The position numbers were made by a program, and so were the translations under genes. The notes beneath the pieces are model-generated. The model did not search any database. It was not told the DNA's origin and was given only the letters and a program-made list of their open reading frames with translations. From assembly GCA_040954595.2 (NCBI GenBank), contig CM082584.2, positions 4,158,110-4,222,109 of the forward strand: a stretch of 64,000 nucleotides of DNA, read 5' to 3'. This document shows positions 1,254 through 64,000 of the stretch, piece after piece. The stretch's first letter is position 1, and each line of letters begins with the position of its first letter. Origin of the DNA: Balanoglossus misakiensis (lineage: Eukaryota; Animalia; Hemichordata).

Positions 1254-1335
1254 GAATATTTGGAATGATCATAATTACTGGCGATCTTATGTGGCACAAG
1301 TGAAGAAAGAATTGGCTGCAAAAGGAGTGATGTAA
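1254..1335 (+). CDS. Last coding exon of nested TRIM-DTC gene, copy A (upstream exons lie before the window)
   Basis: Acceptor ttttatccag|G; reads (G)[26 protein letters not shown]. The ending matches the Deltex DTC terminal helix (Y..RV.EEL.AKG). Homologous to 31481-31556. AATAAA at ~1635. Confidence 0.8.
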
Positions 1336-11500: not shown

Positions 11501-14500
11501 ACCAGCCGAGTCTGCCCACATTTGTATGCTGGATAGAATCTTTACCAGGATTCATTCCAGGGAATCTGTCACCACTGGCCTCTCCACATTCCTCATTGAT
11601 CTCAATCAGGTGAGAATGCATGTTACAAGATATTTGGTTTTAAAGGGTGTGACGATCGTCTTATGCGCACGTGAGACTCAATGGTTACAGGAATTGTTAG
11701 TCTCGGTTACCCAGAGCCCTCTGCTTCTTCCGTTAGGCACTCCAGAAAGAGGGTCTGGGGAAACCCGGTAGACAAACCGTCAGGCGGAATCGGGACAGCT
11801 GCGATGCATGACGGGAGATTAATATTCGATATGATATTATGATATGTCGATATTAGAAAACTATTTACCGAACTTCTCTCTCTCTTTTCAATTTGTATAC
11901 AGTTTTAGCAGGTCTAGCACTTCTCAGCATGTTTTCTTTATCGTATGTCATACATGTCGGCCGTGAGGTTCGCGCGCAGGACGTCGCCATTATGGAATAT
12001 TAATCTCCCGTCATGCATCGCAGCTGTCCCGATTCCGCCTGACGGTTTGTCTACCGGGTTTCCCCAGACCCTCTTTCTGGAGTGCCTAACGGAAGAAGCA
12101 GAGGGCTCTGGGTAACCGAGACTAAGGAATTGTATACAGTCAATGCCATAATTAAGGCAGTGTTCTGTCCTGACAACAGACAAGATGGCAGAGACCATAG
12201 TCTGTGTTCGGAGACCAGGAAAAGACAGCAAATTGGGGGGGAAGAAGGGACAAAACTGAAGTCTACTGATATGATATGCATGAAATATCGAAGGAAGTGA
12301 AGGCAGTCCACTATTGCGTTGAACGCAAAATTTGCAGAACATTTGGATTGGACGTAATGTTAAAAATTGTGCACACGACATTACGCATATACGCATACGT
12401 TGATTGTCAGCCTTTAACAGTATGTATTTCCATGTATTTCTGTGTGTATATTATTTCATAAATGGATTCATTAGCCAACAGATGAAAAAGCTCAGTTGTA
12501 GAATTCATTACCCACCCACAATTCCTGGATAATATACAATGAAGAAACTTGAGAAAGTAAATTATAAACTAGCTTTGAAACAATGAAATTTTACACCAAA
12601 ATATAAAAATTCACTTGAACAATATCTGAAAACAATTGTTTCTCTAGGATGTGCATGATAATAGAAAATTATAAAAACTTTGTCTACTGTAAAATGGGTT
12701 ATTTTCGCGACAGGTAATTTTCCCGATATCAAAAGAGGCAACTTTTATGAGAGGATTAATTTTTGTGTTCTCGTATTTCACTAACTGCATCGTTATCTCT
12801 GAAAAACATTTTATGTGACTTTTTATTTACACGTTTTTTGGCTCTCCCGACGTATTTCGCGAAAATTTATTGCTCGCGAAAATAACCCCTTTTACAATAT
12901 TTTTTCATAAATTTAATTTTGTTACATTCCATTGCTGTCGTTGCTGGTTTCAAATATATAATATTTTCTTTATAGATTTGTGTGGCATTAAAGTATGCAG
13001 GTGAGCGTTCATTGGTGTTGCTGGATGAGTTTGGAAAGGGTACACAGACAATGGATGGAATAGCCTTACTATGTGGCTGTTTACAGCATTGGATAAACCA
13101 GGCCAAGAATTGTCCTCATGTCTTGGTATCTTCTCATTTCCATACCATTGTACATCAACATCTGCTGTCAAGGTCATCCATCATCCAATTTCAGGTCGGT
13201 CAATCTTTGCATCTCTGTTTTCGTGTCGCTATATTCAAACTGGGGTGTTCACATGAAATAAAATTAGAAGACATCAACTTGTGATGGCCACTAGCTCTCA
13301 TTAAAGTAGTATGCTTCGGAAATCAAAGTCAAAGACTTTTCTCATATTTTGCTGAAGTATTCTCTCTTAAAGGTTGAGAATAAAAATTAAAGGCCCACCT
13401 TGCAGAATTTTGAATGATCAGAGAACAAAATTGTCTCAAATTTGAAATTCAAAATGGCCGCACCAGTCTCTGTGTTTACTCTATGGAAAATATTTATAAT
13501 ACTGATTATTATGAAAACAAGATAGCAAACACCCTATTTTCTTCTTTATTTTCAAAAAGACTCCTCACACACTTTAGCAAATAATTAAAATGAATTGAGG
13601 ACTGTCATATTTCTGATTATCTTTCTCCAAGGCACATTCTACCTTAATTATTTTATTCCTCTCTGATAGATGATGGAAGTTTTGGAAGACAAGGATGAAT
13701 TGGTGTCCCTCTATCAATTAATTGATGGCCATAATAGCAGCAGTTATGCCCACCATGTTGCCAAAGTTGCTGGATTGCCGACCAAGATACTGGTCAGAGC
13801 ACAAGAGGTCATTTTCAATTATTCTTTATTTCATGCAGTGATCTTTAACCCTTTCACCCCCAGTTTCCACTATAGAGGTCTTACTCATACCATAGAAAAG
13901 AAGGGTTAAAAATGCAGTTTTATACTGTTCTGAGTCTGCTTAGACAAACCATGGTATGTTTGTGTGAATAGGAACATCCCTACTTTAAAGCCCCTATAGC
14001 TGTCAAATTTCAAATATTTTTTTCCACACAAAAAAACATCAAATATATTGCCTATCCTCTAAAATCTTCACCATTAACCCATATAACTTGCATTTGCATC
14101 AGTTTGTCATCTCTTGGCGATGCATACCACGATAGCTGCGTACTGTTTGTATGGAGGCTGATTAAATCGGTGTGGCACCTGTTTAATGCATAGTGTGTTC
14201 AAATTGCAACATGCAGTCACAATCAGGCATCGATAAGGTGTTCATGTATACCTATCAGGAAGCTTATTTAGATGAATCAATTTAAGTTGGAAAATAAAGT
14301 CATGAAAATAATGCAAAAAGTGGCAGCTAAGAGGCTTTAAAATATCCTTTGGTGGCGCAAGACTACAGATAACGTGATTGAAAGGCACTGTCTTGTAAAA
14401 AGAAGTATGCCGTGCAATCAATAAATCTCAATTTATTTAATACTGCTTTGTGCACACTCTAAGATTACACACACAACAGGAGTGATTTCAAGGAATGATT

Positions 14501-21100: not shown

Positions 21101-24100
21101 GCTCTCATCTCATGTCTGCCCTTTTATTGATAACATTTAATTCATTTTACAGTGACTGCTCTTCAAGAATCAACTAGTAACTCTGTCGATCTACAAATCT
21201 TGCCAAATATTGATTTCTGTGAGTATACCGTGATTAGAACCCCTAATTTACCTAATATAAGCAGTGTTAAGGATGTACGCGCAGAACATAAACCGGAAAC
21301 TGCGAGCACTCGTCTTTTTCCCATAGGATTACATTTATAAACAAACTTCTACTATTGTCATTTTCACGAAATTTCACTCAAAGCTCAGTCCAGAAAATAT
21401 AAATTCATTGGTCAAATAAAATATAGGGGTCACTGCACTCTATTTTGAGATAAATTGCGTTAAAAATTTTGCCCATAGACAAACCATTGGTGAAAAATGC
21501 TGAGTCAGCAATTTTCTTCTATTATCGACTAAATTCATGGCTCTGTATTTCAAACAAGCACGGTGACCCCTATATTTTATTACGGATTTTCATTATACAT
21601 ACAAAGGAGAATCCAAAAATCCACAATTAAAAAAAATGACAATACTTTCAATTTTACTGAACGTACATCCTTAATGTAAACTTTAAGAACTTCATGAAGA
21701 AATTATATAAGGGCTCCAAAACATGAATTATGGCAACAATGGTCTATCATTTATGTAGTGGAATAGATAATATAATTGTTTTAAAATATTTTTGGTGTAT
21801 AAAGTCATTCAGATATCTGTATGTGTTGTTACATTACTGAAAACTTCAGAGACGAAAATAATTGCAAAGACGCATCCCCATTTGTTATGCATTTCTGTGA
21901 AATATTAATGTCTCATTTTGTTTTCATCAAAGCCTTGGAAGCTAGCAAGAGGAGAATCATGAATTTAAATCTAACCTGCGTCCCGGATCACTATACTGAA
22001 GATCAAAGACTTATTTATATGTCTTCATTAGTGCCATTCGAACAAATCAACATGGTAAGGTGGTTGGTGAAATAGTCATTGATAGATAAAGAGCATTGTT
22101 TTCCCCCTACTTTAAAGGGAGGTGTTTTCATTGAGCAAACTCCAACTAGGACCTAGTCATGACTAAAATAATCCTTACTGGTGAATATATTTGGTCCATG
22201 TCCACTTTTAGTTGAAGTCAGTGCCTTTATGAAAGTCATCACAAATCAAGTAATTTTCCAGCATTAATGGAAGTCATGTGTTATATCACTTTTCACATGT
22301 ATTCATGTTTCAGGTGCGTGCAGCCGGTGGTTTGCTGAAATATTTGGATAAGAACAGAATTGGAGTGGAACTTGAAGATCAAAGTGTCATAGTTCCAGTA
22401 ATTGGTCTTCAAGTATTCACTTTGTAAGTAGACTTTAGTGATTTTGCTGCTGTTATTGAAACAAAACATGTAGTGTCTAAAAGGGGCAAAGTTGCTCTCT
22501 TTTGATCTTTTTATGCTCCCCTGTCATACTGGGGGGGGGGGGGGGCAGGGGTTGGGGAGGGGGTATGTACATGTATATGGCTGGGGGGATATTCGTATAG
22601 CCTGTCTGTATTATGTAAGGGGAGGACCATTTGATTTCGGGGGGGGGGGAGGGTTTGGATTTAGTATAGTTTTCATGGTTTAGTATGATACATGTATAGC
22701 ATGGTACAGTATGGCGGCCCATTGCTGCCTTTGGTAAAATGCATAAATGTATATCTATAGTTTGTGTGTTTTTGTTTGTGTTTTTGTTTGTTTGTGTGTT
22801 TTTGTTTGAAAAGAAAATGAAAAGAAATTAAAAACAAAACAAAATAAAAATATAAATAAAATAAAAACGAAATTAAAAACAAAATTGAATAAAAAAAAAT
22901 TTGAAAAGAAAAGAAAACAAAAGAAAATGAAAAGAAATTAAATACTGGTCAACTGTTAAAAAAAACTATTACAAACTCCACTCTGCCTGTAGACAGACAA
23001 GATTAAACGTTCAAAGAATGAGTGTTCGATCTATCAAGGTAGTATTAAAGCCCCTATAGCTGCCAACTTTCACACATTTTTTTCCACAGTAAAATACTTC
23101 AAATATATTCCCTATCCTCTAAAATCCTCACCATTAAGCCATATTACTTGCATTTGCATCAGTTTCTCATCTCTTCATACTGTTTGTATGGAGGCTGATT
23201 AAATCGGTGCTGCACCGTTTTAATAAATAGCGGTCACAATCATGCATCGATAAGGTGTTCATGTATACCTATCAGTAAGCTTATTTAGATAAATCAATTT
23301 AACTTGGAAAAAAAATCATGAAAATAATGCAAAAAGTGGCAGCTCTAGAGGCTTTAAGGTGTGACATACAGCAAGGACTGCAGTAGACAAAGTATACATG
23401 GAGTATGTGTGTTGGTTCATCTGGTGAACATTCCAGTTGTAGGAAATAAAGTGTTTGATCTGGAGTAATTTCAAACACATGGCCGCGACTTGATCATGTG
23501 TGTGTTTTGGTAGTTATGTTTCTATACTTCATGTCATCGTTGTTGTTATTGTTATTGTTATTGTTGTTGTCTTTAATCTAGTGAGATAAAAAAAGTTATT
23601 GCGATTTTTTATGTTGAATCTTTCAGGAACAAGATGTTAATGGTTGACCACAATACTTACAATGCCTTGCAGATCTTTCAGAAGGAACTTCATCCATCCA
23701 TTTATAAATTTGGCAGCAGTGGTTCAAAGGAAGGTTTGAGTTTATATGGTAAGTTATTGTGTGCATGTATTATCATTTCATTCGTCAGTCAGTCTCATTA
23801 TATTGAACACCTATTGCCTGGCCATGAGGGCCATAGCAGCCGTTTATTACCCCCAAGGGGCTGTGAGTTACCAGAATCACATGCTATTTCCCCGAGGCCG
23901 TATATTTTTTTTTTCCTGCTATTTCCCTAGGGATTCATTCTATTTTCCATATCATGTGACGGATTCTGGCGAATCATGTCACAGTATTACCATGAGGTAT
24001 ACATGTATTATAAAATCCAATATGGTTGTCAAGGGGCAAATTCATGATCTATTTTCTATGTCTGGAGTGATTACTAAGATATGCCTTTGGGACCGTCTCA

Positions 24101-27100
24101 GATTGTCACATAAGCTCAACAAACGAAATAACTATGTTTCATGTCAATTTGTTTAGTGTACTTCACTTTCACACTTGTTTAGATGACCACAAAATTCCCT
24201 GTTATGTTTTTATTAAAGCAAAAACTAGTGGTGTACCAAAGAATCTACCTACATTCTGCCTCTCACTCTTGAAGTTCTCTGTTAATTATTCGATTTGATT
24301 AATTTACTGCGATTTTCTCACTCTGCAAGTGATCAGAGGCAAATGTTACTCAAAATCTTCAGCCAATCTTCAACATTGTAGTTTATTTCGGATATCAACA
24401 CTTAATTTTTCACACTTTTGAACTTTTGTTTAAGGGGAAGGGGTTTGGATCCAAACGAATACATTTTGTTTGTTGAGCTTAGGTGACTCAGACAACCTGA
24501 AATGGTCCCTTAGAGATCATTGGCCTTTATAGATAAACATTGTGCAATATCATACATTTTTTGTATCGTGTCTATTTTACTATCCAAAATATTGTAATGA
24601 AACAAAGACCACATAATTATAAACAAGATGGATGCCTCCAATGTCCATACGCCAATGAGAGCCATGTTTACAAAAGCCCGTGCCTGACCCTTTCCCTTTA
24701 GCGTAGCGCAGCCAGCGGTGGGAATGGGGCAGGGGACCAGACTACACCACCACCACCACCAACGACAAACATTCTGTTTGCTTTCGTTGTGTCACTGTTT
24801 CATGACATTTTAGTCGCAGGTGCACACATTATCCACACTCAGTAAAGAATATATGCATGGCGAACGGGAGGGGGGGGGATATTATGGGCGTGTCCCTGCC
24901 CAATTCTCCCTTTATATGATTGGACGTTCCACACATAGTGCCATGAAGCGTTTAGGGACTATGGACAGACTGTCCAAAATGTAGAACACATCCTGCACGC
25001 GTGTGACCAACAGATCGTATTGTCTGTGACCTACTTTACACTATTAAATGTATACTTTGAACCTTGTTGCACAAAACGTGTTACGCATGCGCTGACTGCA
25101 TTACCAAGGCTGTAGCGAATGCTTCTCTGGATCTGGTACCCGATCGAACAAGGCATCATTTGGCAACTAAGGTAAGGTTTCCTAAGTTGTTCATACGTCG
25201 ATTATTTTGGATGATGGTAGGAAACAATGATGATATTTTTGTTGTCCGTACAACCTTGAAAATCCCCTCATTTAAGCGAAAGATCTCTACAATACGTTCC
25301 GACTGAAACAAAATTTAACAAAAACACTTCCTGGTTCAGTAAACTTACACCCCAACAGTCTAAATGGTTGTATTGTTTTTACAAGATGAATCGCATTCCA
25401 CTAATTACGGACTATCACAAAACGTATCTTGACAATTTGATCAATGACATTATTGTGCAATCAATTTGAAATAATCATATCAAATCAAGAGTAAATACAA
25501 TTATTTTTTCCGTCCTCATGCGCGTAGATATTTGAGGTGTTATACATGAAAACAGTGTACATGGATATAGGTCATCCCTGCCTAGCATTTTGACCACACA
25601 ACTTTGACCACAAACATCATGATTCGCCCAAATCACGATATGTCATGAAATATGAAAGTGAAAGGGCAGTATGTTTACTATACAACTTTTATTTTTTTGG
25701 CTTGACAGTTTTTTAAAGAGATTTGAATCTTGCATGGATTTAGTGTTGTGTGTGCATTTTTTGTCAACCGTTTATCAACATACCTGTCACAAGTTCCAGA
25801 AAAAATCGACTCCCTTTAGCCTTAATACCAACGGATACATTTGTACACATTCCATAAAACTGACTTTACAGTAAAGAAAACGATTGTGAAATTGGCTAAA
25901 GTAGTGATTGCTTATTATCCGTATAAAAAATCTTTTGACCACAAGAATAATAAAAATAATTTGAGTACCTCAAAGCTAAAATCCTGTCCTGCACTAATTT
26001 TATGCACTTGTTGTTGATTTTTGTGCATTCCTTGATCACCTGAAAAGTCTAAAATTTCACCTCAATATTTTCGTTCAATAGATCGTAAACCCTAAGACAA
26101 GATGGCCACCGCAAATCCCGGGAAATCGTTTTCACAGCAGTTAATGACCGACATCGATGAGAAGATCTTGATTTGTCCAATCTGTCAAGATCGGATGACT
26201 AGACCCAAAATTCTACAGTGCGTGCACACCTTCTGTGAGAAATGTCTCCAAAAATGGGTCAGACAGAGAGGAGGTACCCTCGAATGTCCGACGTGCCGCT
26301 TTGTCACTCCGCTTCCCGAAAAGGGGGTCGAAGGTCTCGGTAATAACCTATTCATCAACGATATTATCGACATCTTTGACAAGCTGCAACCAACTGCTCC
26401 AGATTCGGTGACCTGTGACCTCTGTGACAAAAAAGCCGACAACTGGTGTAAAGAATGCGCTCAGTTCTTATGTGATGGATGTTGTCTGACACACATGAAG
26501 TTACGAACCACGAGAAATCACAAAGTCCTAACACTGGAAGAGTATAACAACATGGCCGAGTCTGGTCGGGATCACCTGATTCGTCCACGATTCTGCACAG
26601 TTCATCAGGACAGCCAGCTGGAACTCTTCTGCGACCACTGTCAGAAAACGGTTTGCGTGAAATGCGCAATAATCGGCCATAAAGGCACTGCGCACAACTT
26701 GGAATCGCTAGAAGATGCGTCGAAGAAATACACTCCCGAGATGCAAATCCTGGTCGACAAGTTAGCAACCATAGTGTCTTCACTCCGCGAAACTCAACAA
26801 GAGACAGATAGATTCATCAGAGAATACAACAAAAAGAAGAGCAAGGTGCAACAACAGATCAGACAGAAAGCATCTGACGTCATCAAACGAGTTCACAAAG
26901 AAGAACAGCGATTGCTGGATGAAGTGACGGCAATTGATGGAAAGATCATGAAGGAAGTGCAGGCAAAGGTCGAAAAACTGGAGTTTGATCTCGGCTGTGC
27001 TGAAAACATGAATGTCTACTCGCGAAGTCTGCTGCAACACGGCAATGCAGCTGATATACTTTCCCAGAAGAAAGAACTGATGCAGAGATTGAATGAAATC

Positions 27101-30100
27101 ATAAATGATCGTTCAACAGACCGATACGTTCCTCCACAAAACACCCGCCTTGTTTTTCAAGAGAACAGCCAGTGCATGCAACTTTCTCTTGGAGAAGTAA
27201 TCGACCAATCAGAAGTGACACATGCTGCACGTGTCAGCCAATCAGTTGATCGACAGAGACTACAACAGCAACCTGAGGCAACGACCGAGAAATCTGCGAT
27301 TAAAAGAGAAATGACCGACCAATCCGGGGTGTCAAGTATGTCACGTGTCAGCCAACCAACTGTCAAGAGGAAACAACAAAGACCTATTACTCTGGCCCAG
27401 AAGACTTCTGCTCCTGGAGTTGTTACTGGTAATATGCCAACGGGAACTATGGACGACACCTCTGATAAATATTCTATTTACATTACATATACGTTTGCAG
27501 ATGGAATACAAGGAGTAAGTAGTACAATGAAAATGGTTTGAGATGCACAGAAGGAATGTACTGACCATCGATTTGTTTATCAACATAGTCAAAAGAAAAC
27601 ACTCTTTTCACATTCAAGGTTAGACTTGCTCCAAGTCTATAGGCTTAAATTTCAGCAAAATTTGTTCTGATTTAATATAGCGTGTGTGGAGTGAACGCAT
27701 TAAGTTGTGGCATCGCGATAGTGATGAACAGTAACCGAAACTCAGTACCGAAATTCAACCAAGGCAAACAAACGTGTGAAGGGTAATGAGTAAAACTAAG
27801 AAACGAGGAACACCTGAATTAGTCAAGCGAATAGTGGGCTCAGTCTAATCCAAGGTGAAGATGAAAAACCGCGACTAGACCACAATGCATGCTTTAGTGA
27901 TAAGAATGTATCACCCTAAACAAACAATCTGTTATGAACTGTAACAATGAAAAAAATCACTGGTCTGTACATTTCTTCTGTGCATCTCAAACACCCTTTT
28001 TATCATTGTTGTTGTATATGTTTGAAGTAATGGTTTGGCTAAATGCGTTGCATACCTTGCAGTCCCAGCTTCTCTGTTTAAGTAAATTTTGAACTGTTCC
28101 TGGCTTGTCAATATCAATGTCAATATGGGGTATGATATAGAGGGCTGAAAAGTGGTCATGTTTAGTACCTAAGTCTTGCTGTTTCATTCACACACACGAA
28201 CACTTATCAGCTATTATATCGACTTAGTTAACTTCTTCGCAAATAATTTTTGTTTGTCAAACTTGGTATGCTAACAACAGAGATTCGTGTATCAATACAA
28301 ATTATTCACGCTACATGAATAAGTGTATTGGAAATGTTTCCTTAATGTCATCATAAACCTGAAAGTTTTGACAGAAAAAGACAGCCAGCCCATCTTGACT
28401 TGATGGCCGAAATCTCACAGAAAACGCTACAATCCATGTGTGGCTACACTTCATTGTTAGTGATGTTTTCGACTGTCACATTTTGATGATCAAAATGAAA
28501 GGAAACAGTCACCTCCCAAAATTGCACCTTCATGATTTCACCTTTTGTGGAAGGAATCAGATCATAATTGATATGAATATTTATTCCCCGCAGAATCCAA
28601 TATTTATTCTTAAAAGTTCAGTTAATAAACGCATCAAACACGAATGATAACTCAACGATTGGTGGGGAACTAACCAAAGCCACACGTCTTTCTCACTTTT
28701 CAAAATCTGAAATGTTGACAAGCGCAAGTTGTTTGTTTGAGAGAGAAAAATCTGCCGAAGCGCCCTCAACGGCTGTACGTAAGTGTGTGTCTGCCAAGAG
28801 AGTAACAAACTCCGTGATCAAGGAAACATGGGTTTATATCTTTCAAATTATTCCCTCAGTAAATTTTCCGCCAGATTCCAGTGTGATAAACAATTATTTA
28901 TATTTATTACACCTGATACGACATAAATCAGGACAACGTCATACAATGCTTCACAAGACTTGAATTATTATTTTAATTTTATTATTTTTTTATTTTATCA
29001 ACTCAAAAATAACTAAATACATATAAATTTGTAAATAGTTTTTTTTATAATTAGCCAAATTTTATTGTAGTATGACTAATAAATCATACGTTATTGTTAT
29101 TATTCTTACTAGTTATTTTTCATTTCCAAACCCTACATCTAATCAAGTATTTGTGTGGTTTAGAATGATGTTTTTTGCTTTGAATCCTTTGTCAGAAATA
29201 TTTCGATTTCGTCATATAATTTTGGTAAAATCTGACACCATACTCTACAAATTTAAAGAGTTAAGTACCAAAACTCCCAAGTCACGTGATTTACATGCTG
29301 CTTGTTTTGCAGCCTGAACATCCGAACCCTGGACAGCCATACAGTGGTGGTGAGTTCATAGGATTCATACAGGGCGATGACGAGGGTCGTGAAGTGCTGC
29401 GGCTGTTGAGGATTGCATTTGATCGCCGACTGACTTTCACCATCGATGGGGAATCAAACGAAGTAGTCTGGAATGGCATAACACATGACCAATATGGGTA
29501 AGTTTGATTTCCATTATTGCTATTTCATCACACTAACACCCATTTAATTTCAATTAACCAACAATACGTTACTTTTTTGTGATGTGTATCAGAAATTTAA
29601 AGGGCTCTTCAATCATGTCAGCTCTTGTTTCCCTGTGTGGTTTTGATGGCGAACTGGGAGAAAAAAACATACATTGTAGGTCATTGGAATAGTTATCAAA
29701 ATTAAAACAACACCGTTCCGGTGCCAGGAAAAGAGACACGTAACGTGAAATACATTTCGAGATCTCTATATGGAATGATTTTATGGAAATGCATAGGAAT
29801 CCAGCCCTGAAGGTCTAGGTCTCTGGTAGTGACAAAAGGGTACATACATAGGTTATAGCAAAAAAAAAAAAAAATCAAAGTATTTTGATCAGTTAGCCAA
29901 CAAATCAATAGTACCACAAGTCAAAATAGCAACGGCAAAGAACATACATGTATTGAAGCTCATTGAACATGTTTGAGCTCACCCGCTGATGGTGATAGTA
30001 TCTGTGCAGGTAACCATCTTACTTAATTTTCACATCTTTTGGTTTTATTGAACTACGCCTCTCGCACCTAAGTGTGTTCCTTGTAATGGGTACTAATGAC

Positions 30101-33100
30101 GTCAATAATCAAGTTATCAATTCTTTCAAAATATTAAGGGAATTGAAAATCAAAATCTACATATAGACACATTCTTATGTGACTCTCACTCAGACAGAAA
30201 CGACTTGCGCAGGTACCTATAAAATTATTGAAATGTTGATGAAGGGGATATTGACTGTTTTATTACAAACACATCCATCCGCAAGTAATTGTGTGACTGT
30301 TACAACGTTACACGCCATTGAAACTGGTAGTATAAGTCGAGTGTGCGATGTCGTTTTAAAATACACAGCTATAAGAATGTGTAATTCAACCTGCAATCCA
30401 TTGATTGACACCTATTCAGGTTACCCAAAATGGCTATAAATATTGCAGTGGCATGAAATATTCCAGTATTATAAATCCAAGTTGCGTCCAACCCATCCCT
30501 CAATGAATGTCTTGTATTTTGCATCTGTCCATCGCAATAAATTGATGCAGATAGAGAACACTAGCGCTTCTAACGTGACAATCAAACAAATACCAATTGC
30601 CAGATGGTAAAACTAACATGTATAGTTTTGATTGAAACCATCTGGCTTACGTTCATGGCACACTTTCAGCTCATATCGAAGTCTTGAGAATCATGGGTAT
30701 ATTCTTCAGAATTGTCATACTTCATTCATACTGGGATGGAATTTTGAAATCACTACATGTATTATATGGTTGTCCTTTGCATACTTACCCGAGTTAAATA
30801 TACTATTCCACATTCATCGGGATCATACAAAATAAACATAATATGTCTAGTTTTCAGTCCAAACACAAGACAGAATTGAGGTTTAACAGCTCATTGGACG
30901 TTCTTTGCCTGGGGATGCTCAAGAAATTGTGTTATTACACAAATTATTTGAACTCAATGCCATGAGACATTTGGCAGCTTCATTTGCACAAATATATCAC
31001 TAATTTGCTGCACATCATTTTAGAGTTTATAAACAGAGTTGTAAAATTTTCCAAATGCTAAACGTGTTAGTCAAGAATCTAAGTACAGTTAATGTCATCA
31101 CATACGAACAGGTATATTAGTGCCAAGTGTGGAATATTATTTCCTTCTATATCATGGATTAGGCATTGGTGAGATCCGATTATTAAGTGAGGTGTTATTT
31201 TTATAATGTCACTTTTAGGGTATAACTTGCTTCACAGAAGAGCACAATGCTGTATTTTTGTTATAAAACTTTGTTCTGTACTGTAGTTGTGTATATTTGA
31301 CATCTTCGTTTAATTTAATAATATTTCACTGTTGGCAACCAACAGTGGTTTGGCATCACGGACCATCAAAATTATTATTAGCTGCACAACGCGTATCACA
31401 CACTTGTGGGAGTGAAATCATTTCGTGCACAGTAATGGGAAAACTAATACATGTAATACTACACATTTATATTTCTCCAGGGGTTTGATCAGCTATGATT
31501 GGTCATCTTATGTTTCAAAAGTGAAGAAAGAATTGGCTGCAAAAGGAGTGGTGTAAATGTCAAGACGCCCTCACAACGTGGTTGTAGCCACCACATGGAA
31601 TGCATAATGAGAAAGACCTCAAGTGAATGTCAAGTACTCTGTGACGAATAGTCATTCTCTCTCAAATTATTTGGAGTTTTAGAAATATTTTATTGTATTA
31701 TACAGAATAAGATTTGGTAAAGGAAAGCTAGTGTAGAATAGGATTTTGTCAAGAAAAATGTAGAAGATAAGGATTACTCTGTGTGTAGTCACGGTATATT
31801 TCAAGTACAGAATTATCGCTGATCTGGTTCTGTTCATTTGGGATAATTGCCTAGTAATAAACTCTATAAAACTTTCAGCACAGTACACGTAGCCTACACA
31901 CTCGACATTTGGTCAGAAATACCACATTACCCCAAGTACAACGACTACTAATTGTTTTTTACCCATTGATTTGTAATATAAAAGAAGTTCATTTTTCTTA
32001 TACTTACCACTCAAATCTAATTCTTGCATATATCCAAGTTATTTTATGCAGTGAATGGGGTTTTAACACATTACTACACCGAATATAGATTTGAAAGCCA
32101 TGTCAATTTTTGCACAAATAATTCTGAAGATTTTTAAATTCCATCAACACGAATGATATCAATTTATCACATAATAATACGGTTTCTTGAATATAGTTTA
32201 ACAAGTAATTTTTTTAATCAATTATGTACATAAAATTTGTAACATGGGAAATAAAAGACCAATAAAAACCAATACTCATGGCTTTGTTACATCTGTAAAT
32301 CTAATAAAGCTTTTGTCTCCAAAGTTTTCATCTCAGCCACACATACTTACAAGAGGAAAAACTCAATTGCTCAGTGATTCGTTGTATACTTTTGAAGAAA
32401 TAACAAAAGTTTTAATACATCTCTATTATGCATACACTTTTATTTTTCATCCCCTAATTTCCCAGTCGTACTTTTGCATTTAGTTAACGTTGGATCCTAT
32501 GTATCTTGCAAATAATCTGTTCTGAACCTCTAGGCTAACACGTATCTAACTTTATATCAAGCTAGAAACAGAAGTGATATTCTGTTAAATAAAACAAATG
32601 TATAATAAGGTATGGACGTTGGAGACAGCAATCTATCCCATCATCCCCTTTTTTCCCGTACATGTTTCCAAAACTCTATCCCTATAAAATTTACCATCAC
32701 CGGCGGTCAATAGCCTAGTCTGGTCCTCTGCCCCATTCCCGCCACTGGCTGTGCTATGCTGAAAGACCCAAGGGTCAGGTATGGACTATTGTTAATATGG
32801 CTCTTATTGGTCAATAAATACGAACATTGTGATTGATGGACGAAAGCTATTTCAAACATTACAACCTCGAAGTTTGAGTTTGTTTGCCAATCAAAATATG
32901 CTTTGGTGAAGTTGAATAAGAAACATTCCTTATCAAACTATCGAATAGTCTGGTCCTCTGCCCCATTCCCACCGCTGGCTGCGCTACGCTAAAACGAAAG
33001 GGGTCAGGTACGGTCCGGTCTTGGCCAAAAACCTGGCCAGCATATTAAAATGAAACAAAGACCACGTGATCATAAACAAGATGGATGCCTCCAATGTCCG

Positions 33101-36100
33101 TATGCCAATGAGAGCCATGTTTACAAAAGCCCGTGCCTCAGACCCTTTCCTTTAGCGTAGCGCAGCCAGCGGTGGGAATGGGGCAGGGGACCAGACTAGT
33201 CACATAACAGCTTGTCTGTGTGCGCATTTACACACTCTCGATCCCCCACTCCCAGTGGCCAGGAGTGTGATATAGAAACCACATCCAAAACAACTTAGGT
33301 ACTTTTCTGTTCTTATTTTTTAGGAATAATGAATCAAACAAAATCAGACTTGGGCAAGAAAATGCTAAGGTAAACATGTAGTTACCAATGTGAGAAAAAT
33401 TAGTGAATGGTGAGAAGATTTTTGTATTATCCAAACTTGCAAACATGAATGAACCATGACATTACAAGTTTCCCTAGACAGTTGCAAACAAAATTGTTTG
33501 ACTGAGTGTATTTCTCCTGGCTAGAGCCCAGGGATCTGAACATCGAACATTTACAAGGGGAATGAGGGGTGCTCTTGTCCTAGCACCCACCTTAATATGT
33601 TAAAAAACTGTTGTACAGTAGATTTGCTAAAATAGAACATTTTATTTACTGAGAAGTAAAAGGATTGTGTTATACATACCTGATGTACAAGATGACAAGA
33701 AAATATTAAATGGGAAACCTACTTCTATTTTACTCATTTATTTCAACTGTAAACATCAGCTGGGGCTCTAAATAACAGGATATTGCCTCATAGATTAACC
33801 CTTTCACCACTATGGTCCGGTCCAAATCCATTGTTTTCTATGGGAAGGTTGGACCTCTATAGAGGGAACTGGGGGTGAAAGGGTTAAAGGGACAAAGTCT
33901 CTCTCTCGCTGCCCTTTTTTCCATTAATTATGTTTGATACAAGACACTGTTCATGTTAATGTACATGTGGATATATAGTGAATCAATGATCAACCACACA
34001 AAACTTCCATCCCACTTGTATGATATGAGAGTAAAAACTCGCCCAAAATGAATAAATGGTAAAGAACGATTATTCATTTTGGCGAGTTTTTTCACTCTCC
34101 TGTCTATAAAAGGGATGGAAGTTGTGTGTGGTTGAACGTTCATTCACTGTATATCCACATGTAGAATAACAAACAGTGTCTTGTATCAAATATAATATAT
34201 GGAAAAAAGGGCAGCGAGAGAGAGACTTTGTCCCTTTAATGGAAGTGGGGCCTTTGCCTTCAGGAGCAAGGCCTCTACCAAGAGAAATACAGTAGATTAA
34301 GTTTGTTTGAACCAATATTACAATGGACAAGATAATTGACTGGACAATTTTCAACATATCCTACGGGTAAAGATAGAGTTGGATGAATGACAATATTACA
34401 TACAAACATACATGGAATCCAAAGACCATTTATATCTTCATCAAGTTTTCAAAACCAAGAATCCCTTCCCATTTACTATAATGCTGTGTCCCCAATCATG
34501 AAAAATTGTTTTGATTTGCTCAGGATGTGGTTTTTGAGACCTGTACAGGATATTGATCTCCTGAAGGAAAGACAAGCTGCAATCAGTTTTTTTGTCTCAC
34601 CAAGAAATATTGAAGTATGCTCATCTCTACAAGACGCTCTACGGAATATCAAGAATGTCGCTGTACGTACATTGTGTATCTATCTACTAAGTATATTAAA
34701 GTATTTATAAATTTTGAAAAACAATTTTTCAATTTCATTATTGTTCATACCAATTTTGCAACAAGTAGACATATAAATTGTACTTACTTATAACAAATAT
34801 AACTTGTGAGTAGATGTTATTTTCAAAAATACCATATATCCGCTATTAATTTTAGATAAATTCTCTTTGTGTTTGGATTTTCTTTGATAGTTTGCATTGT
34901 GTGTACACGTGCATTGTATGTGTTAGAGTGAAAGGTCCATCGTCTGAGGGCACTCCCTATGTTAGCGCTCTTGAACGAATTGGATCCTGTGTGTGGAAGA
35001 ACCAAATACATTAGATTTATCAGAAACGTGTAGTACATGTATCTGTAGTATATCGCAAACATATGGATTATGTATTATTGTTCTTTTCTTTATTATTTCT
35101 AGAGAGTGTTGGGTCGGATGAAAACAGCTCAAGCCTCAATTGGTGACTGGCAAGCCTTATACCAGGTAATTTATACCAAGCTTTATATCTACTGGTCAAG
35201 TAAACAGTCTTCCAATAACTAATTCCCCTTGCGTAGTAGTTGTGGTCTTGCATCTTCTATTACTCTTAAAGATGTACTCGCAGAACATAAACCGGAAACA
35301 CTGCACGCCCTGTCTTTTTCCCATAGGATTACATTGATAATCGGTAGAAAACAAACTTCTACTATTGTCATTTTCACGAAATTTTACACATAGCTCAGTC
35401 CAGCAAATATAAATTCATTGGTCAAATAAAATATAGGGGTCACTGCGCTCTTTTTTGAGATAAATTGTGTTAAAAATGTTGGCCATAGACAAACCATTGG
35501 TGAAAAATGCTGAGTCAGCAGTTTTCTTCTATTATCGACTAAATTCATGGCTCTGTATTTCAAAAACAAGCGCGGTGACCCCTATATTTTATTACGGATT
35601 TTCCCTATACATAATATGACAGAACCCCATGGCTCGATCGTGCAAGCACGCCGTAACGGTAGTATTTGCATCGAGTGTCTGGCGGTGTATTCTTGCGCCC
35701 GTCCCCCGCACTCGCTGTCGCTCGTGCGGGGGGCAGCAAGAATACACCGCCAGACACTCGATGCAAATACTACCGGTACGCCGTGCTTGCACGATTGAGC
35801 CATGGGGTTCTGTTTTTATTACATATGTTCATCCCATTTTGAAAAAAAGACTGAAAATGAAAGAAATGAGACCGCGAATGATATTGCTTGTTTCTTGAAC
35901 AGGCCACTCATTTGCATACAGGTATGGCATAATGTTTTTGGTATTGCACTGAGTGCAAATACCGATGTTACGCGCGCGCTCGGTGCAAGTAATCGACGGT
36001 ACATATGTAATAAAAAGGAGAATCCAAAAATCCACAATTAAAAAAAATGACAATACTTTCAATTTTACTGAACGTACATCCTTAACACGTTCTGAACTAA

Positions 36101-39100
36101 TTTCGGAATTCCACAGTCTGAAAATAATACCTTCCCTATTTGAAAACATTCATAATTGATGAAGGAATAATAATTAAAGGTTTATAAATGTGACATTAAA
36201 TTTTTGTTTGTAAGCCTATAATTTGTGCCACATCAATTCTCTCCAAATTTCACAAAGTCACAAGTTAATATTTTCAGAAGACTTAGTAAATAAATCTACA
36301 ATAGGTACGCACTTTAAAGATAACTGAGATCATTGATATGAAAGAGATATCTTGTCTTAAATTATTTATTACGTGTTACTTGTAGACTGCCTACAATGCA
36401 ATATACATTGGTGATATATGCAGAGCTCAGACTGCTGATGTGGCCATCTTTAAGAAGGTAAGGAAACTTTCATAAACAATTTACATTTACTGTTTTGTAT
36501 TGGTTTTAGAAATGTAACAAATGAGTCTGTTAATGTGTAAGAAAAAAGTCGAGACTTTCTAAAATAGTCAGTGTTTGTTAATGTCACCTGTGATTTTTAT
36601 TCCTGTACACCTATTTCTGTGTAATTCCCAAATGGGAGCACAGTGTCCTTGACGCTATGTTTTTCTGGCTGATTGTTTTGAAATTTGGGTTACAGGTAAA
36701 ATATACATATATGTGCAACATTTATTACATTGTAATATCAGAAATTATTTAGCTAGTTTGTAATTTTCTTTATTTATTGTCAAAAAGCACTACATGTATT
36801 GATTCAATGGATGCAAAATGCAAACAATAGATATGCAATGCAGTGGGCCATCTGAAAGTCTTCTTTGCACCTGCACTACAATGATTGAGAGTTGAGAACA
36901 GGTCACAGGCCAAGAATGCACTATTTTGAAGCCCTACGAATTCATTTGTTTCCTGTGATTTTTATATGAAAATGGGTGACTTGTGGTTGGTGAAAACAAC
37001 TTCTATTGGCTAACCTTGCAACCTCCCAGGACAGATATATGCAGAGATCACCCTTGGTACCCTCCCCTATTAAAATATTACACACTGACTGCAATCTGAA
37101 TGAATGGTAAGAAGTGACACCTTGGTTGCATGTAACTCCAGTTTGTGTTTCATTATGACCGGGATGTGGCTGTTTTCTTCATATGCTCTTTTCACTAACA
37201 CATTTATTCCAAACAGAGATGTTCACATAGCTGCATGTCCTGACAATGTGATATTTACAGGCCTAATTGTAATTTTCTCCTTGTTGTTATTTTTTGACAG
37301 ATAAGCAGAACATTCACTGAGGATTTACATTATATTGCCGGCCTGATTATCAAAATTGTAAGACCTGGTTACTTTGTTTTAATGTCCTCCAGACAGACCC
37401 AAAATAGAGACATACTAGATTATCATAAGGCCAAAATAAAAAAATATGTGCTGTTCCGATTACCCGACCTACCCTAATTTTAACCCGCCGACCCTAAACT
37501 TTTTAGCGCTTCATTAACCCAGAAGTAAAAATAATGTCAAATATACAAAATTTATAAAAATTGCGCGAAATATGATGAAATCGCGCGCATCACGCAAGAA
37601 CTATGACATCTATCTTCTACACTAACACTGCCAGTTAAATAAAAAAAATGCAAAATAAAAAAATTTCCTACCTACATACCCTATTTTAAAAAGCAATGTA
37701 ATCGGAACAGCACATATTATTTTTGGGGGGCCTAATATCAATTATAATTTCTGTCCATGTACACTTCTGTATATCTGCAGCCATTGAATAGACATCAGTG
37801 AAAAATACAGGATAAGTACCGGGCAACAGCAATATAGCTTTCAAATATGAAACATGTAATTGAGAATGACTTGATTTAATACATTGATAAATTGGTGATG
37901 ATCTAATGTCTTTACAATGGTAAAATGATCAAAATATATTTTTGTTCATTTATTTAGTTATAATATAGTAAGAGACAGTATACCATATTTTCATGACTGT
38001 CTATGGATGGGAATAATGCAATAAATGCATTTTTCAGTGATGAGAATTTCTGAAGTGAAGTCAAGATGTTATTTAGCTAAATACTTGAAGAGAAAAAAAT
38101 GCACTTGTTATTTCCAGGTGGATTTTGAAGAATCTGCTGTTCTGAACAAGTTTGTTGTGAAACCAAATGTAGACAAGGCTCTGGATGAAAGTGAGTTGAC
38201 AATAGTAGATACTTGTTACTTCTATTAAAGGGACAAAGTCTCTCTCTCGCTGCCCTTTTCCCATTAATTATTTTTGATACAAGACAATGTTTATATTATT
38301 CTACATGTGGATATATAGTGAATCAACATTCGACCACACACAACTTCCATTCCGTTTGTAAGATATGAGAGTAAAAACTCGCCCAAAATGAATAAATGGT
38401 AGAGACCGATTATTCATTTTGGCGACTTTTTTCACTCTCGTGTCTACATGTGGGATGAAAGTTGTGTGTGGTTGAACGTTTATTCGCAATATATCCACAA
38501 TGTAGAATAAAATAATCAGTGTCTTGTATCAAACAAAATTAATGGAAAAAGCGTGAGAGAGACTTTGTCTCTTTAATAATAAATATTACACACACTCTCT
38601 ATCACATGCATATGATTATATTGTATGATAAAACGCCATAGGTTATGCCAGTAGGTGTATAATAATATTTATTTGTAATGACTGTATTCCAGAGAAAGAA
38701 ACGTACAATGGATTGCCAGATTTTATGACCAAGATTGCCAGAGAGGAGTTGAAGAAACTTGGTGATGACATCAAGGAATGCAATGTGGTGTATTTACCTC
38801 AGCTGGGTTATCTACTGGCTATTCCAAGATCTTCAATTATGTCAGAGAAGCAAGACTTTCAAATGCCATCGCTTGAGTTTGTGGTGAGTCAACTTTGAGG
38901 GTCTTGGTCCTACCACAGTACAGGACATTGATAACATTATTATTTGTTGTTTTTGCTATTTAAAGGTATACGGTCACCTACAGAAATTTAGCTATAGTTA
39001 CCATGGTAAACTTGAGATCTAGCCAATCACGGATTTTTAGTTCGTGGCACACGCGAAAAAAAGAGCGCCACCATATGTTCTTTAGAACATTCAAATATGC

Positions 39101-53925: not shown

Positions 53926-56900
53926 ATGAGTGAGCAGTTACCTGGTACGAGCAGAACTGGGTGTTTTCCAAGGACAAGAATCTACCAACCAGGCAACAAC
54001 ACTGATGTGACTACTTTATCAGAGACATCAGACAATAATGTTTTACCAGATATGTCTGAAACGGATATTGAAAACAGAAGTCAACGTCAAACTTTTAACA
54101 ATGATGAGGAAGGCTCTCAGGTACTGTATTTATATTTATATTGTCCTTCTTCAAACTCAGTGGTCTGCATAGTAAGTGTGTAGTTATTCAAGCACATGGG
54201 TGATGCAATTTAAGTTCATTATCAGGCTGCATTGAAATAAATTTAAAAAAAAAATATTTTACATGGGTTTTAGTCCACGTAGATTAGGTAATTCGATAAT
54301 GGATTGAGTAGGTCAGTTTAGTCAATTCTGGTAACTGATTTGGTAATGTTTTTTACTCTGAAAGTAACTGTGCATGTCCCTCAAGAAACTGTGTACTGTT
54401 AAGTATATGACGTCAACACCATTTGGTAGTTTGTACTACTGTAGAAAATAGGGACTGTGGCTATGGCTGTTTTGGATCATTCAGTCAATTTCTGTTAAGA
54501 TTACAGATTCATTATATGCAACTGTAGAGGGCGCTGTTTTCATCAGTATTTCTTGTGCTCCCTGTTTAGATACCTAGACGTACATAGGCATCTCTCTGAA
54601 ACCTTAGTTTCAGGGAGGAACCAACATCTAGGTACAAGACGTGCAACCTCTTGGCCCCTTTGAATGCAGATTAACAAACAAACAAATCTGCCGCATGGAC
54701 TTTTTCCTAACCTGGTGTGACATTAATGATTTATGAATTCTGCGCTTGATCATGAAGGTGGTTTGGTGGTCAAAATAAAGCAATTCCCCCCCCCCCCCTC
54801 GGGCTTAGTTCCTTGGCCAATCTGATTAAAACCATGTCGCCGTTCCCTACATCTCATTTTAATCAGATTGTTCCTTGGCAAACCATGCCTAACCCCCCCA
54901 CACACATTTGTCCTGAATCGCCCGAAGTGGGCTCCCTTGGGGATTAGATTACATCAACTGCTGCATCAGGGGTCCAGTGTTCTCCCCAGGAATTTCTGAC
55001 AGAGTATTGGCTAATTTACATAACAATGTGGATAATTGTTATGTTAAAGAGTTTCTATTGTTTTCCAAAAATGACAGAGTGTTGTCTGGGGAGAACACTG
55101 CGGTGGGTCATATTGCATTGTCTGATTGCTAATGTCACCATACATGTCTGAATTTAATCAAGCAAGAACTATTATCTGTTAGTCTTGAAAATTTGTTATT
55201 CTGCATTTTCATAGATCATTATGAGTGTGATATGGGGTGGAGGCAAAGTTGGACTGGCTTATTATGACACTGAGACATGCCATATTCATCTGATGATGGA
55301 CATTGCAGAATCTGATGATTTTCCAATGACTAGAAGTGGTAAGATACATTCATTTAGCTAGCGCCATTAGCTGTATCTTTTCGCTATGTTTTCAGCAGTT
55401 TTGTTTTGCGTACCTACTACAGTTTCTTGTTCAAATTCCGGAAACACGATGAAATACCCAGTATTTAGCTTATCAACACAAACATATATATGTATAGTCA
55501 GCATTGTTTATGTGCAAAACTTGAATTCAAGTCCGGACAAGAATTCATTTGTCAATAATAACAATGGCCTTTTATTATACACATACAGGCTATATGTTGA
55601 CAACGGAGTATATTAGCATGCTATTTGGATCAGAACAAGAAATTGCATAACAAACATACTGAAAATACAGCCGAAAAGTTACAGCTATAAATGTTCCTTA
55701 AATATTGTGTGGAAATGTGCTGTTAGGAAGGGAGGGGCCATTCTGGTTTGTTTTTGATTTGTTTGTTGTTGTGTTATTTTTTTTTTTTTTTGGGGGGGGG
55801 AGAGGAAAACTCTTTATATGTGACAGAAAAGAAGCACCCACTACCCTAAAAATATAATGGGAACCCCCCCCCCCCCCCTGAAAATATCAAAATAACAGAG
55901 ACACCCCAGGTGGAATTTTCCAGATTGTCAAGTATTATACTACAAATTGTGTTGACAATATTATCAGCAGAAAAGGTAAAAAAGCTTGTAAAGGGTAAAG
56001 TGTTACTGCTATAATACATTGGTTGTTTACATGTATTTGCCATTTTGGTGGACTGTTATTCACTACTCTCTCCTCTCCAGCAATTTTTGATTCTGTATTT
56101 TTCAAAATAATTTGTTCCGAAATTAGTTCAGAATGCATTCCAACCGAGCTTACTTGCAACATGATGATAGCATTTGATTCTGTGGCCAGAGAGCATTCTG
56201 GGATAAATGTCCTAATTGTATTTGAAAAGGAAATATCAGATTATTGTATGACAGAAATTGTTAAAATTTAAACTTCAAATCTGAAACTGCAATTAACTCT
56301 CCTCTGACAGACCAACTATAACAATATGATTGTCACAATATGTTTATGGCATTTGATGTTGTCTTCCTAGTCTGCCAGCCTTAAAGGAGACATCCTTTGA
56401 TTCTTAAAGGGACAAAGTCTCTCTCTTGCTGCCCTTTTTTCCATTAATTATGTTTGATACAAGACACTGTTTATGTTAATGTACATGTGGATATAAAGTG
56501 AATAAATGTTCAACCACACACAACTTCCATCCCGTTTGTATGACATGAGAGTAAAAACTCGCCCAAAATGAATAAATGGTAAAGAACGATTATTCATTTT
56601 GGCGAGTTTTTTCACTCTCCTGTCTATAAGAGGGATGGAAGTTGTGTGTGGTTGAACGTTCATACACTATATATCCACATGTAGAATAACAACCGGTGTC
56701 TTGTATCAAATATAATTAATGGAAAAAAGGGCAGCGAGAGAGAGACTTTGTCCCTTTAAAGGGGCAATTTTCAATCCCTGGCTCTTGTTGATACTGGTTA
56801 AATGTTTATCTGGAGCAAAGCTGTTGTTTTCCATTGAAATCTTTATCAATCTATGTGCTTAAATTAGCTGAAGCTGACAAAGAAGGTTCCCCTTTAAAAT

Positions 56901-62810: not shown

Positions 62811-64000
62811 ATGGCCACCGCAAATCCCGGGAAATTGTTTTCACAGCAGTTAATGACCGACATCGATGAGAAGATCTTGATTTGTCCAATCTGTCAAGAT
62901 CGGATGACGAGACCCAAAATTCTACAGTGCGTGCACACCTTCTGTGAGAAATGTCTCCAAAAATGGGTCAGACAGAGAGGAGGTACCCTCGAATGTCCGA
63001 CGTGCCGCTTTGTCACTCCGCTTCCCGAAAAGGGGGTCGAAGGTCTCGGTAATAACCTATTCATCAACGATATTATCGACATCTTTGACAAGCTGCAACC
63101 AACTGCTCCAGATTCGGTGACCTGTGACCTCTGTGACAAAAAAGCCGACAACTGGTGTAAAGAATGCGCTCAGTTCTTATGTGATGGATGTCGCCTTATT
63201 CATCTGAAAACAAGAACCATAAAACATCACAAAGTTTTTACGATGGAAGAGTATAACAACATGGCCGAGTCTGGTCGGGATCACCTGATTCGTCCACGAT
63301 TCTGTGCAGTTCATCAGGACAATCAGCTCAAGTTATTTTGCGACCACTGTCAGAATACAGTTTGTATTGAGTGTGCAATAATCGGTCATAAAGGCACTGC
63401 GCACAACTTGGAATCGCTAGAAGATGCGTCGAAGAAATACACTCCAGAGATGCAAATCCTGGTCGACAAGTTAGCAACCAAAGTGTCTTCACTCCGCGAA
63501 ACTCAACAAGAGACAGATAGATTCATCGGAGAATACAACAAAAAGAAGAGCAAGGTGCAACAGCAGATCAGACAGAAAGCATCTGACGTCATCAAACGAG
63601 TTCACAAAGAAGAACAGCGATTGCTGGATGAAGTGACGGCAATTGATGGAAAGATCATGAAGGAAGTGCAGGCAAAGGTCGAAAAACTGGAGTTTGATCT
63701 CGGCTGTGCTGAAAACATGAATGTCTACTCGCGAAGTCTGCTGCAACACGGCAATGCAGCTGATATACTTTCCCAGAAGAAAGAACTGATGCAGAGATTG
63801 AATGAAATCATAAATGATCGTTCAACAGACCGATACGTCCCCCCACAAAACACCCGCCTTGTTTTTCAAGAGAACAGCCAGTGCATGCAACTTTCTCTTG
63901 GAGAAGTAATCGACCAATCAGAAGTGACACATGCTGCACGTGTCAGCCAATCAGTTGATCGACAGATACTACAACAGCAACCTGAGGCAACGACTGAGAA
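62811..64000 (+). CDS. Nested TRIM E3 ligase, copy C (large RBCC exon, runs off the window end)
   Basis: ATG GCC ACC GCA at 62811 after the acceptor at 62790; open to 64000 and collinear with 26102 (offset 36709). Missing from the ORF track because no stop falls in the window. Confidence 0.9.
   Translation, partial: MATANPGKLFSQQLMTDIDEKILICPICQDRMTRPKILQCVHTFCEKCLQKWVRQRGGTLECPTCRFVTPLPEKGVEGLGNNLFINDIIDIFDKLQPTAPDSVTCDLCDKKADNWCKECAQFLCDGCRLIHLKTRTIKHHKVFTMEEYNNMAESGRDHLIRPRFCAVHQDNQLKLFCDHCQNTVCIECAIIGHKGTAHNLESLEDASKKYTPEMQILVDKLATKVSSLRETQQETDRFIGEYNKKKSKVQQQIRQKASDVIKRVHKEEQRLLDEVTAIDGKIMKEVQAKVEKLEFDLGCAENMNVYSRSLLQHGNAADILSQKKELMQRLNEIINDRSTDRYVPPQNTRLVFQENSQCMQLSLGEVIDQSEVTHAARVSQSVDRQILQQQPEATTE

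Follow-up and report, generated by a model that had tools for sequence, protein, structure and literature searches.

A 64,000-nucleotide stretch of the genome of the acorn worm Balanoglossus misakiensis (assembly GCA_040954595.2, contig CM082584.2, positions 4,158,110 to 4,222,109 of the forward strand; hereafter the window) contains a gene, at 26102..31556 on the + strand, whose predicted product joins a TRIM-type RBCC (RING, B-box, coiled-coil) region to a C-terminal DTC, the domain of the Deltex ubiquitin ligases. The ADP-ribose pocket of this DTC is largely lost, and related genes in acorn worms and amphioxus carry the same fusion. We propose, as a reading with about an even chance of being right, that the gene encodes a TRIM ubiquitin ligase whose pseudo-DTC would act as a variable target-recognition head, with a pathogen protein as the likeliest class of ligand. 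The relatives suggest a find larger than the window gene, namely a family whose intact members are two-RING TRIM-Deltex chimeras and whose offshoots have been disarmed repeatedly.

Gene structure and predicted splicing

When the first splice donor is read through, the ATG at 26102 opens a reading frame of 479 codons. The initial annotation had taken this frame to be only the first coding exon of an RBCC TRIM protein that ends in a DTC, and both parts of the proposal held. Coding exon 1 (26102..27514, + strand, aa 1-471) encodes the RING, B-box 1, B-box 2, coiled coil, linker and DTC strands 1-2. It is separated by intron 1 (27515..29312, +, phase 0, GTAAGT...CAG) from exon 2 (29313..29497, +), which encodes the DTC core. 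Intron 2 (29498..31480, +, phase 2) leads to exon 3 (31481..31556, +), which encodes a remodelled pocket loop and the last DTC helix, with the stop codon at 31554-31556. The donors at 27515 and 29498 both read GTAAGT, a pyrimidine-rich acceptor ending in CAG precedes each of 29313 and 31481, and the phases of 0 and 2 follow from the exon lengths. Joined at the predicted GT/AG junctions 27514/29313 and 29497/31481, exons 1-3 form a single open frame of 557 aa. Indirect support for the splicing came from database models of relatives. These continue across both junctions, the Saccoglossus paralog model P0203 terminates in read-through at the position equivalent to the first donor, and two Ptychodera isoforms diverge near the position of intron 2. 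We regard the predicted three-exon structure as real and well supported, and the order of domains in the predicted protein is RING, two B-boxes, coiled coil, disordered linker and DTC.

The RBCC scaffold

The N-terminal C3HC4 RING (aa 25-65; 26174..26296, +) is of the TRIM2/3/56 type (Pfam PF00097, E 2e-10; TRIM3 in the PDB, E 2e-28). It is intact, and the linchpin Arg is present after the last Cys. Both B-boxes lie within aa 105-203 (26414..26710, +): B-box 1 matched PF22586 over aa 105-142 with 23 bits, below the cut-off of 27 for that profile, and B-box 2 matched PF00643 over aa 162-203 (E 7e-10). In an AlphaFold2 model of exon 1 the zinc-finger domains are confidently predicted and are followed by a helix of 111 residues (aa 203-313, pLDDT about 90), a disordered linker and DTC strands 1-2. 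The long helix aligns with the coiled coils of TRIM3 and TRIM28 and, together with a return helix (aa 316-335), makes up the predicted coiled coil (26708..27106, +). The linker (aa 372-442; 27215..27427, +) has pLDDT below 50 and occupies the site of a second RING in relatives; no Cys occurs between aa 366 and 441.

Detection and fold of the DTC domain

Searched alone against Pfam, exon 2 matched DTC (PF18102) with E 8.4e-15 and 55.6 bits (cut-off 25), and exon 3 gave a weak match (E 0.18) to profile positions 115-133. The spliced domain scored 102 bits across profile positions 1-133. A DTC profile built from nine intact domains was also run against all 2926 stop-to-stop pieces in the six frames of the window. 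The three exon pieces were matched in order on the + strand (profile 1-39, 38-103 and 113-133), as was a paralogous last exon at about 1254; the remaining four rows had E values of 2.8-8.7. A missed exon encoding the canonical His-His-Lys-Thr and GYPDP loop was sought in the same scan, and none was found in the six frames of the window.

The DTC stands at the C-terminus, as in Deltex proteins, and lies about 375 residues from the N-terminal RING, close to the distance of about 370 first proposed. There is no RING directly before it. The closest DTC is that of Saccoglossus (55% identity), which is likewise degenerate. A predicted structure of the Saccoglossus domain (mean pLDDT 80) matched the DTX3L DTC with Z 13.9 (root-mean-square deviation 2.9, 118 aligned residues) and DTX2 with Z 13.1, the next structure match having Z 5.8. 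Judged on this model, the DTC fold is retained despite decay of the pocket.

The ADP-ribose pocket

In DTX2, ADP-ribose is reported to be contacted by R535, S567, S568, W578, H582 and H594, and the S568A/H582A/H594A mutant to have lost ubiquitination of poly(ADP-ribosyl)ated (PARylated) substrates (PMC7442474). H582 and E608 form a catalytic pair described as strictly conserved, and substitutions of either residue, even E608Q, impair formation of ubiquitin-NAD+ (PMC7615817, PMC10810221, PMC11460948). Deltex chemistry is also described as relying on a RING joined to the DTC by a short linker (PMC7615817).

DTX2 numbering was mapped onto the 6Y22 chain with one offset, which fitted all seven positions. 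Only two of the seven are retained in the window gene, W578 as W524 and E608 as Glu550. R535 is replaced by Phe486, the S567/S568 loop is deleted and H582 is replaced by Thr528, all within exon 2; in exon 3 the H594-GYPDP loop is rebuilt without GYPDP, and Glu550 lies in the last DTC helix. The catalytic pair has accordingly lost its His and kept its Glu, and among the contacts R535, S567, S568, W578 and H594 only the Trp remains. By its predicted domains, with an N-terminal RING and B-boxes followed by a coiled coil, the gene is a member of the TRIM family, and by the defining features of Deltex proteins it is not one of these.

For a survey of pocket residues, searches seeded with the window gene supplied 205 proteins, which are not a random sample; 182 of them have a DTC, and these yielded 123 near-complete domains. 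The 112 non-TRIM domains retain R535 in 109 cases, S568 in 110, W578 in 112, H582 in 91, P597 in 110 and E608 in 95.

Relatives carrying the fusion

Searches with exon 1 gave 19 matches among 3818 candidates, the top two being models from Ptychodera flava (47% and 36% identity) in which a RING, a B-box and a DTC are all present. With exon 2, the best 150 of 864 matched representatives were used, and a profile search was added (26 matches). At least nine other genes combine RBCC parts with a DTC, four in Ptychodera, two in Glandiceps, one in Saccoglossus and two in amphioxus (XP_070563511, XP_070563512, XP_070540329, XP_070540305, XP_077992667, XP_077982039, XP_006820645, XP_078684009 and XP_078668871). 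This count omits two isoforms and is a lower bound on both number and taxonomic range. The Saccoglossus fusion P0024, which begins only at the coiled coil, is probably an incomplete model. The RefSeq names of the fusion models, 'TRIM56-like' or 'uncharacterized', are automatic. For P0001 or P0141 the ESM Atlas listed no cluster joining B-box and DTC; small families cannot appear there.

A C3HC4 RING motif lies 5-8 residues before the DTC in five of the nine relatives, as in Deltex; the window gene and the other four relatives have no second RING motif. None of these five genes without a second RING, among the ten TRIM-DTC genes, keeps R535 or H582. Among the five with a second RING, R535, W578, H582 and E608 are all present in three, a fourth lacks just the His, and the pocket of P0020 is decayed. 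Gln occupies the E608 position in P0115, P0024 and P0020. Ptychodera, Glandiceps and amphioxus each have both intact and degenerate paralogs.

Several points favour the alternative in which the DTC of the window gene has kept its binding of ADP-ribose or nucleic acid and E2~ubiquitin is delivered by the N-terminal RING, either in cis or from a partner chain: W578, which stacks on adenine, and E608 are retained, a close relative appears to keep the fold, the long linker is predicted to be flexible, and the pocket is intact in three relatives. This alternative is opposed by the substitution of R535 by Phe and of H582 by Thr, the deleted and rebuilt loops, the reported defects of the DTX2 triple mutant (PMC7442474) and of H582 substitutions (PMC7615817), and the loss of the DTC-adjacent RING on its short linker. 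Because all five TRIM-DTC genes without a second RING have lost R535 and H582, ADP-ribose sensing by the DTC of the window gene is unlikely, and we judge this whole alternative to be improbable. The suggestion in the initial annotation that the DTC is a sensor of ADP-ribose, NAD+ or nucleic acid is not supported for this gene.

The proteins P0117 (Glandiceps), P0141 (Ptychodera) and P0091 (amphioxus), all 'uncharacterized' in RefSeq, have the order RING-B-box-B-box-coiled coil-RING-DTC and a fully intact pocket. They would be better candidates than the window gene for ubiquitylation of ADP-ribose or nucleic acid. A conserved segment of 67 residues was seen between the coiled coil and second RING (P0117 aa 391-458, P0177 aa 402-468). 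A remnant of the DTX3L KH domain was considered for this segment and dropped, as no match was found in Pfam or among the gathered proteins.

Outside the family, macrodomain-DTC models without a Pfam-called RING were seen in oyster (P0029), sponge (P0089) and Glandiceps (P0116), and a snail protein (P0045) has a DTC pocket decayed much as in the window gene. On these models, DTCs that are separated from a RING, or disarmed, also occur outside the TRIM-DTC family.

Evolutionary history

A tree of the RBCC region (22 rows, 370 columns), rooted only at the midpoint, placed all acorn-worm members in one starred group (99/97), which splits into an intact-type branch (100/99) and a degenerate branch (94/93). 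The window gene is sister to Ptychodera P0001 (98/96), and P0020, with a second RING motif and a decayed pocket, sits within the degenerate branch. In a tree of the DTC the degenerate members are on long branches.

Since five relatives keep a second RING, three of them with the full pocket, the ancestor would have been a TRIM carrying the whole RING-DTC module, and the captured unit was most likely this Deltex module rather than a lone DTC. The simplest history that we infer is fusion of an RBCC to a RING-DTC of DTX3/DTX3L type, after which the pocket decayed and the second RING was lost more than once, in one acorn-worm branch with the fold retained; because the root is a midpoint, the order of events is only inferred. 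Of the domain shuffling proposed in the initial annotation, the fusion itself stands; its history most likely differs, as the relatives point to a whole module whose second RING was lost later.

Amphioxus has an intact member and a disarmed member without the second RING. Its DTCs group with vertebrate domains of DTX3/DTX3L type in the DTC tree (95/94, bootstrap not settled), which hints at a separate fusion in amphioxus; a single TRIM-DTC clade is not rejected (p-AU 0.276), and amphioxus is not resolved in the RBCC tree.

The Saccoglossus kowalevskii protein P0179 (XP_006817883), in the degenerate RBCC branch (100/99), has no DTC and ends in a Tpt1/KptA domain (Pfam E 1e-61). This domain, an RNA 2'-phosphotransferase, would be a second NAD+/ADP-ribose module on the RBCC scaffold. 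P0179 may represent a head swap or a merged gene model.

Tandem copies and selection

The window comprises about two units of a 30-37 kb tandem near-duplication, which differ by 4.9% mismatch over 23,157 aligned columns, and parts of three TRIM-DTC copies are visible. Some of the tandem copies could be uncollapsed haplotypes. The last exon of the upstream copy (1254..1335, +) is open and retains its splice site; it is 6 nucleotides longer, in frame, with a different pocket loop and a near-identical last helix. Exon 1 of the downstream copy (62811..64000, +) is open for 396 codons to the end of the window.

Between exon 1 and the downstream copy there are 27 synonymous and 22 non-synonymous differences, giving a ratio of non-synonymous to synonymous rates (dN/dS) of 0.205 over 396 codons (Fisher p 1e-7). 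Exon 1 is under purifying selection, and the gene is therefore functional.

Divergence between the units is uneven. Of 77 comparison windows, whose median divergence is 4.3%, the three most diverged (20, 18 and 14.7%) span the 3' part of intron 2 together with exon 3; immediately after the pocket loop the figure is down to 1-5%. A block over the B-boxes (26400-26700 compared with 63110-63410) was also seen to differ by 15-17%, the rest of exon 1 differing by 0-2%. Positive selection was considered for the B-box block and is unsupported, since the non-synonymous proportion (pN) is 0.074 and the synonymous proportion (pS) 0.35. The block would rather be an older segment recombined in, by old ancestry or gene conversion, than the result of excess amino-acid change. 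As a class, the islands of divergence would fit selection holding variants apart, and also gene conversion from an older paralog under neutrality, a distinction that two copies do not allow.

Each TRIM-DTC copy is nested, on the same strand, in an intron of a MutS-family gene. The intron that encloses the whole gene described here spans 23749..33323 (+), as defined by flanking exons and by Pfam MutS_III and MutS_V on downstream exons. From its motifs, the host is probably MSH5-like. In the MutS exons that were checked, the encoded protein is identical between units. A normally single-copy meiotic gene may have been carried along with the nested TRIM, or haplotypes may not have been collapsed. 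Dispersed elements of about 360 nucleotides with inverted arms occur in several copies (33884-34246, 38218-38583 and 56397-56762), and a near-perfect inverted pair of 135 nucleotides (11697-12125) is present in one unit only; all of these are probably non-autonomous transposons.

Proposed function

In the proposed ligase the coiled coil would dimerise, as expected from the general behaviour of TRIM proteins. Carried on its flexible linker, the pseudo-DTC would use the remodelled pocket face to capture a ligand, whether a protein or not, and lysines of this ligand would receive ubiquitin from the N-terminal RING. Such a ligand might be a pathogen protein that targets Deltex ligases, in which case the pseudo-DTC would serve as bait, as in TRIMCyp. 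We favour a pathogen protein in view of the number of copies, the variability of the loop, what TRIM heads do in general and a report that the mammalian DTX3L DTC is a positively selected host-pathogen interface (bioRxiv 10.64898/2026.04.23.720386).

Several observations weigh against a variable recognition head. The dN/dS estimate covers exon 1 only, exon 2 being present as a single copy in the window. The B-box block has diverged mostly at synonymous sites, and the exon-3 peak may share its neutral cause. H582 is absent from 21 of the 112 non-TRIM DTCs, so that loss of the His alone is not rare, and the window gene does keep W578 and E608. Finally, with Saccoglossus P0203 ending at the exon-1 read-through and P0180 stopping earlier, forms without a DTC may exist.

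These two models, both without a full DTC, also bear on whether the domain is a decaying leftover and the working protein an RBCC-only TRIM, possibly the unspliced 479-aa form. An in-frame stop does lie nine codons beyond the first donor, many pocket residues are lost and the DTC branches of degenerate members are long. Against a leftover stand the degenerate DTCs that are full-length and open in Ptychodera, Glandiceps, Saccoglossus and the window gene, the upstream last exon, which differs by an in-frame 6 nucleotides and keeps its splice site and last helix, and the 53% identity of the window DTC to intact DTCs. We consider this explanation distinctly unlikely.

The protein could instead be a regulator without an immune role. 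Its coiled coil would pair with host partners, intact RBCC-RING-DTC paralogs among them, whose activity or location it would tune, and the pseudo-DTC would be a module for interaction with host proteins. TRIM hetero-dimers and pseudo-enzyme regulators are established, which counts for this idea, as does the presence of intact and degenerate paralogs in the same three animals. However, the RING of the window gene is itself intact, with its linchpin Arg, and a surface that meets a host partner would be expected to be conserved, whereas the pocket loop differs sharply between near-identical copies. A regulatory role is in our view unlikely.

The recognition-head proposal can be extended to the family, as a tentative possibility only. 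TRIM-Deltex chimeras would form an undescribed family of invertebrate deuterostomes in which intact two-RING members tag ADP-ribose or nucleic acid through the Deltex RING-DTC and build chains through the TRIM RING, within one dimer. Offshoots in acorn worms and amphioxus would have dropped the second RING and disarmed the pocket in parallel, turning into rapidly changing baits for viral proteins that antagonise the ADP-ribose/Deltex pathway, and one Saccoglossus member would have swapped its head for Tpt1.

Comparison with known systems

No paper describing the TRIM-DTC architecture was found in a search of main texts; mention in the tables of genome papers is possible. The main text of Marin 2012 (PMC3503706), which describes domain shuffling of amphioxus TRIM-MATH proteins, contains no 'Deltex', 'DTC' or 'Saccoglossus'. 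'TRIM' is absent from the main texts of a Deltex review (PMC8424196) and of the DTX3L preprint (bioRxiv 10.64898/2026.04.23.720386), and 'Deltex' from that of PMC8195603; TRIM25 is the only TRIM mentioned in the main text of PMC13224862. The fusion is thus apparently undescribed, yet already present, unnamed, in RefSeq. The architecture is not unique to this genome.

Ubiquitylation of ADP-ribose and nucleic acids by Deltex proteins is known, always with the DTC next to a RING, and the TRIM-DTC family appears to move this module onto a TRIM scaffold. Its members form a natural series, from intact two-RING chimeras through loss of the His alone and a decayed pocket with RING to pseudo-DTCs without the RING, and three relatives carry the Glu-to-Gln change that impairs DTX2 in vitro. 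With this series one can test the role of a DTC that lacks ADP-ribose chemistry, a possible division of priming from chain building between two RINGs of one protein, and the DTC as a possible target of viral proteins. On sequences and models, TRIM ligases would gain an additional C-terminal class.

The window gene resembles the DELTEX ligases, most closely those of DTX3/DTX3L type (PDB 3PG6, 6Y22, 6Y5N; PF18102), in its C-terminal DTC of common fold with W578 and E608 kept; in several relatives the likeness extends to the RING 5-8 residues before the DTC. It differs in having an RBCC N-terminus, whereas DELTEX proteins have WWE, RRM/KH or macro domains, and in lacking the adjacent RING, R535, H582, the S567/S568 loop and the H594-GYPDP loop. 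With TRIM proteins of TRIM2/TRIM3/TRIM56 type (PDB 8AMR, 5JW7) it shares the RING, two B-boxes and long coiled coil in matching order, and its RING most resembles those of TRIM2/3/56, but its C-terminal head is a DTC. The standard classes of TRIM C-terminus are filamin/NHL, SPRY, PHD-bromo, MATH, ARF and FN3. Among the RefSeq fusion models, XP_070563511 is the sister by RBCC and has an identical layout of RBCC, linker and degenerate DTC; five models have a second RING and three an intact pocket, and the window gene has neither.

TRIMCyp (TRIM5-cyclophilin A), which has a known viral ligand, and the amphioxus TRIM-MATH fusions are likewise lineage-specific captures of a foreign C-terminal domain by an RBCC. 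The captured domain is a different one in each; in the TRIM-DTC family, unlike these, an enzyme module appears to have been captured and then disarmed.

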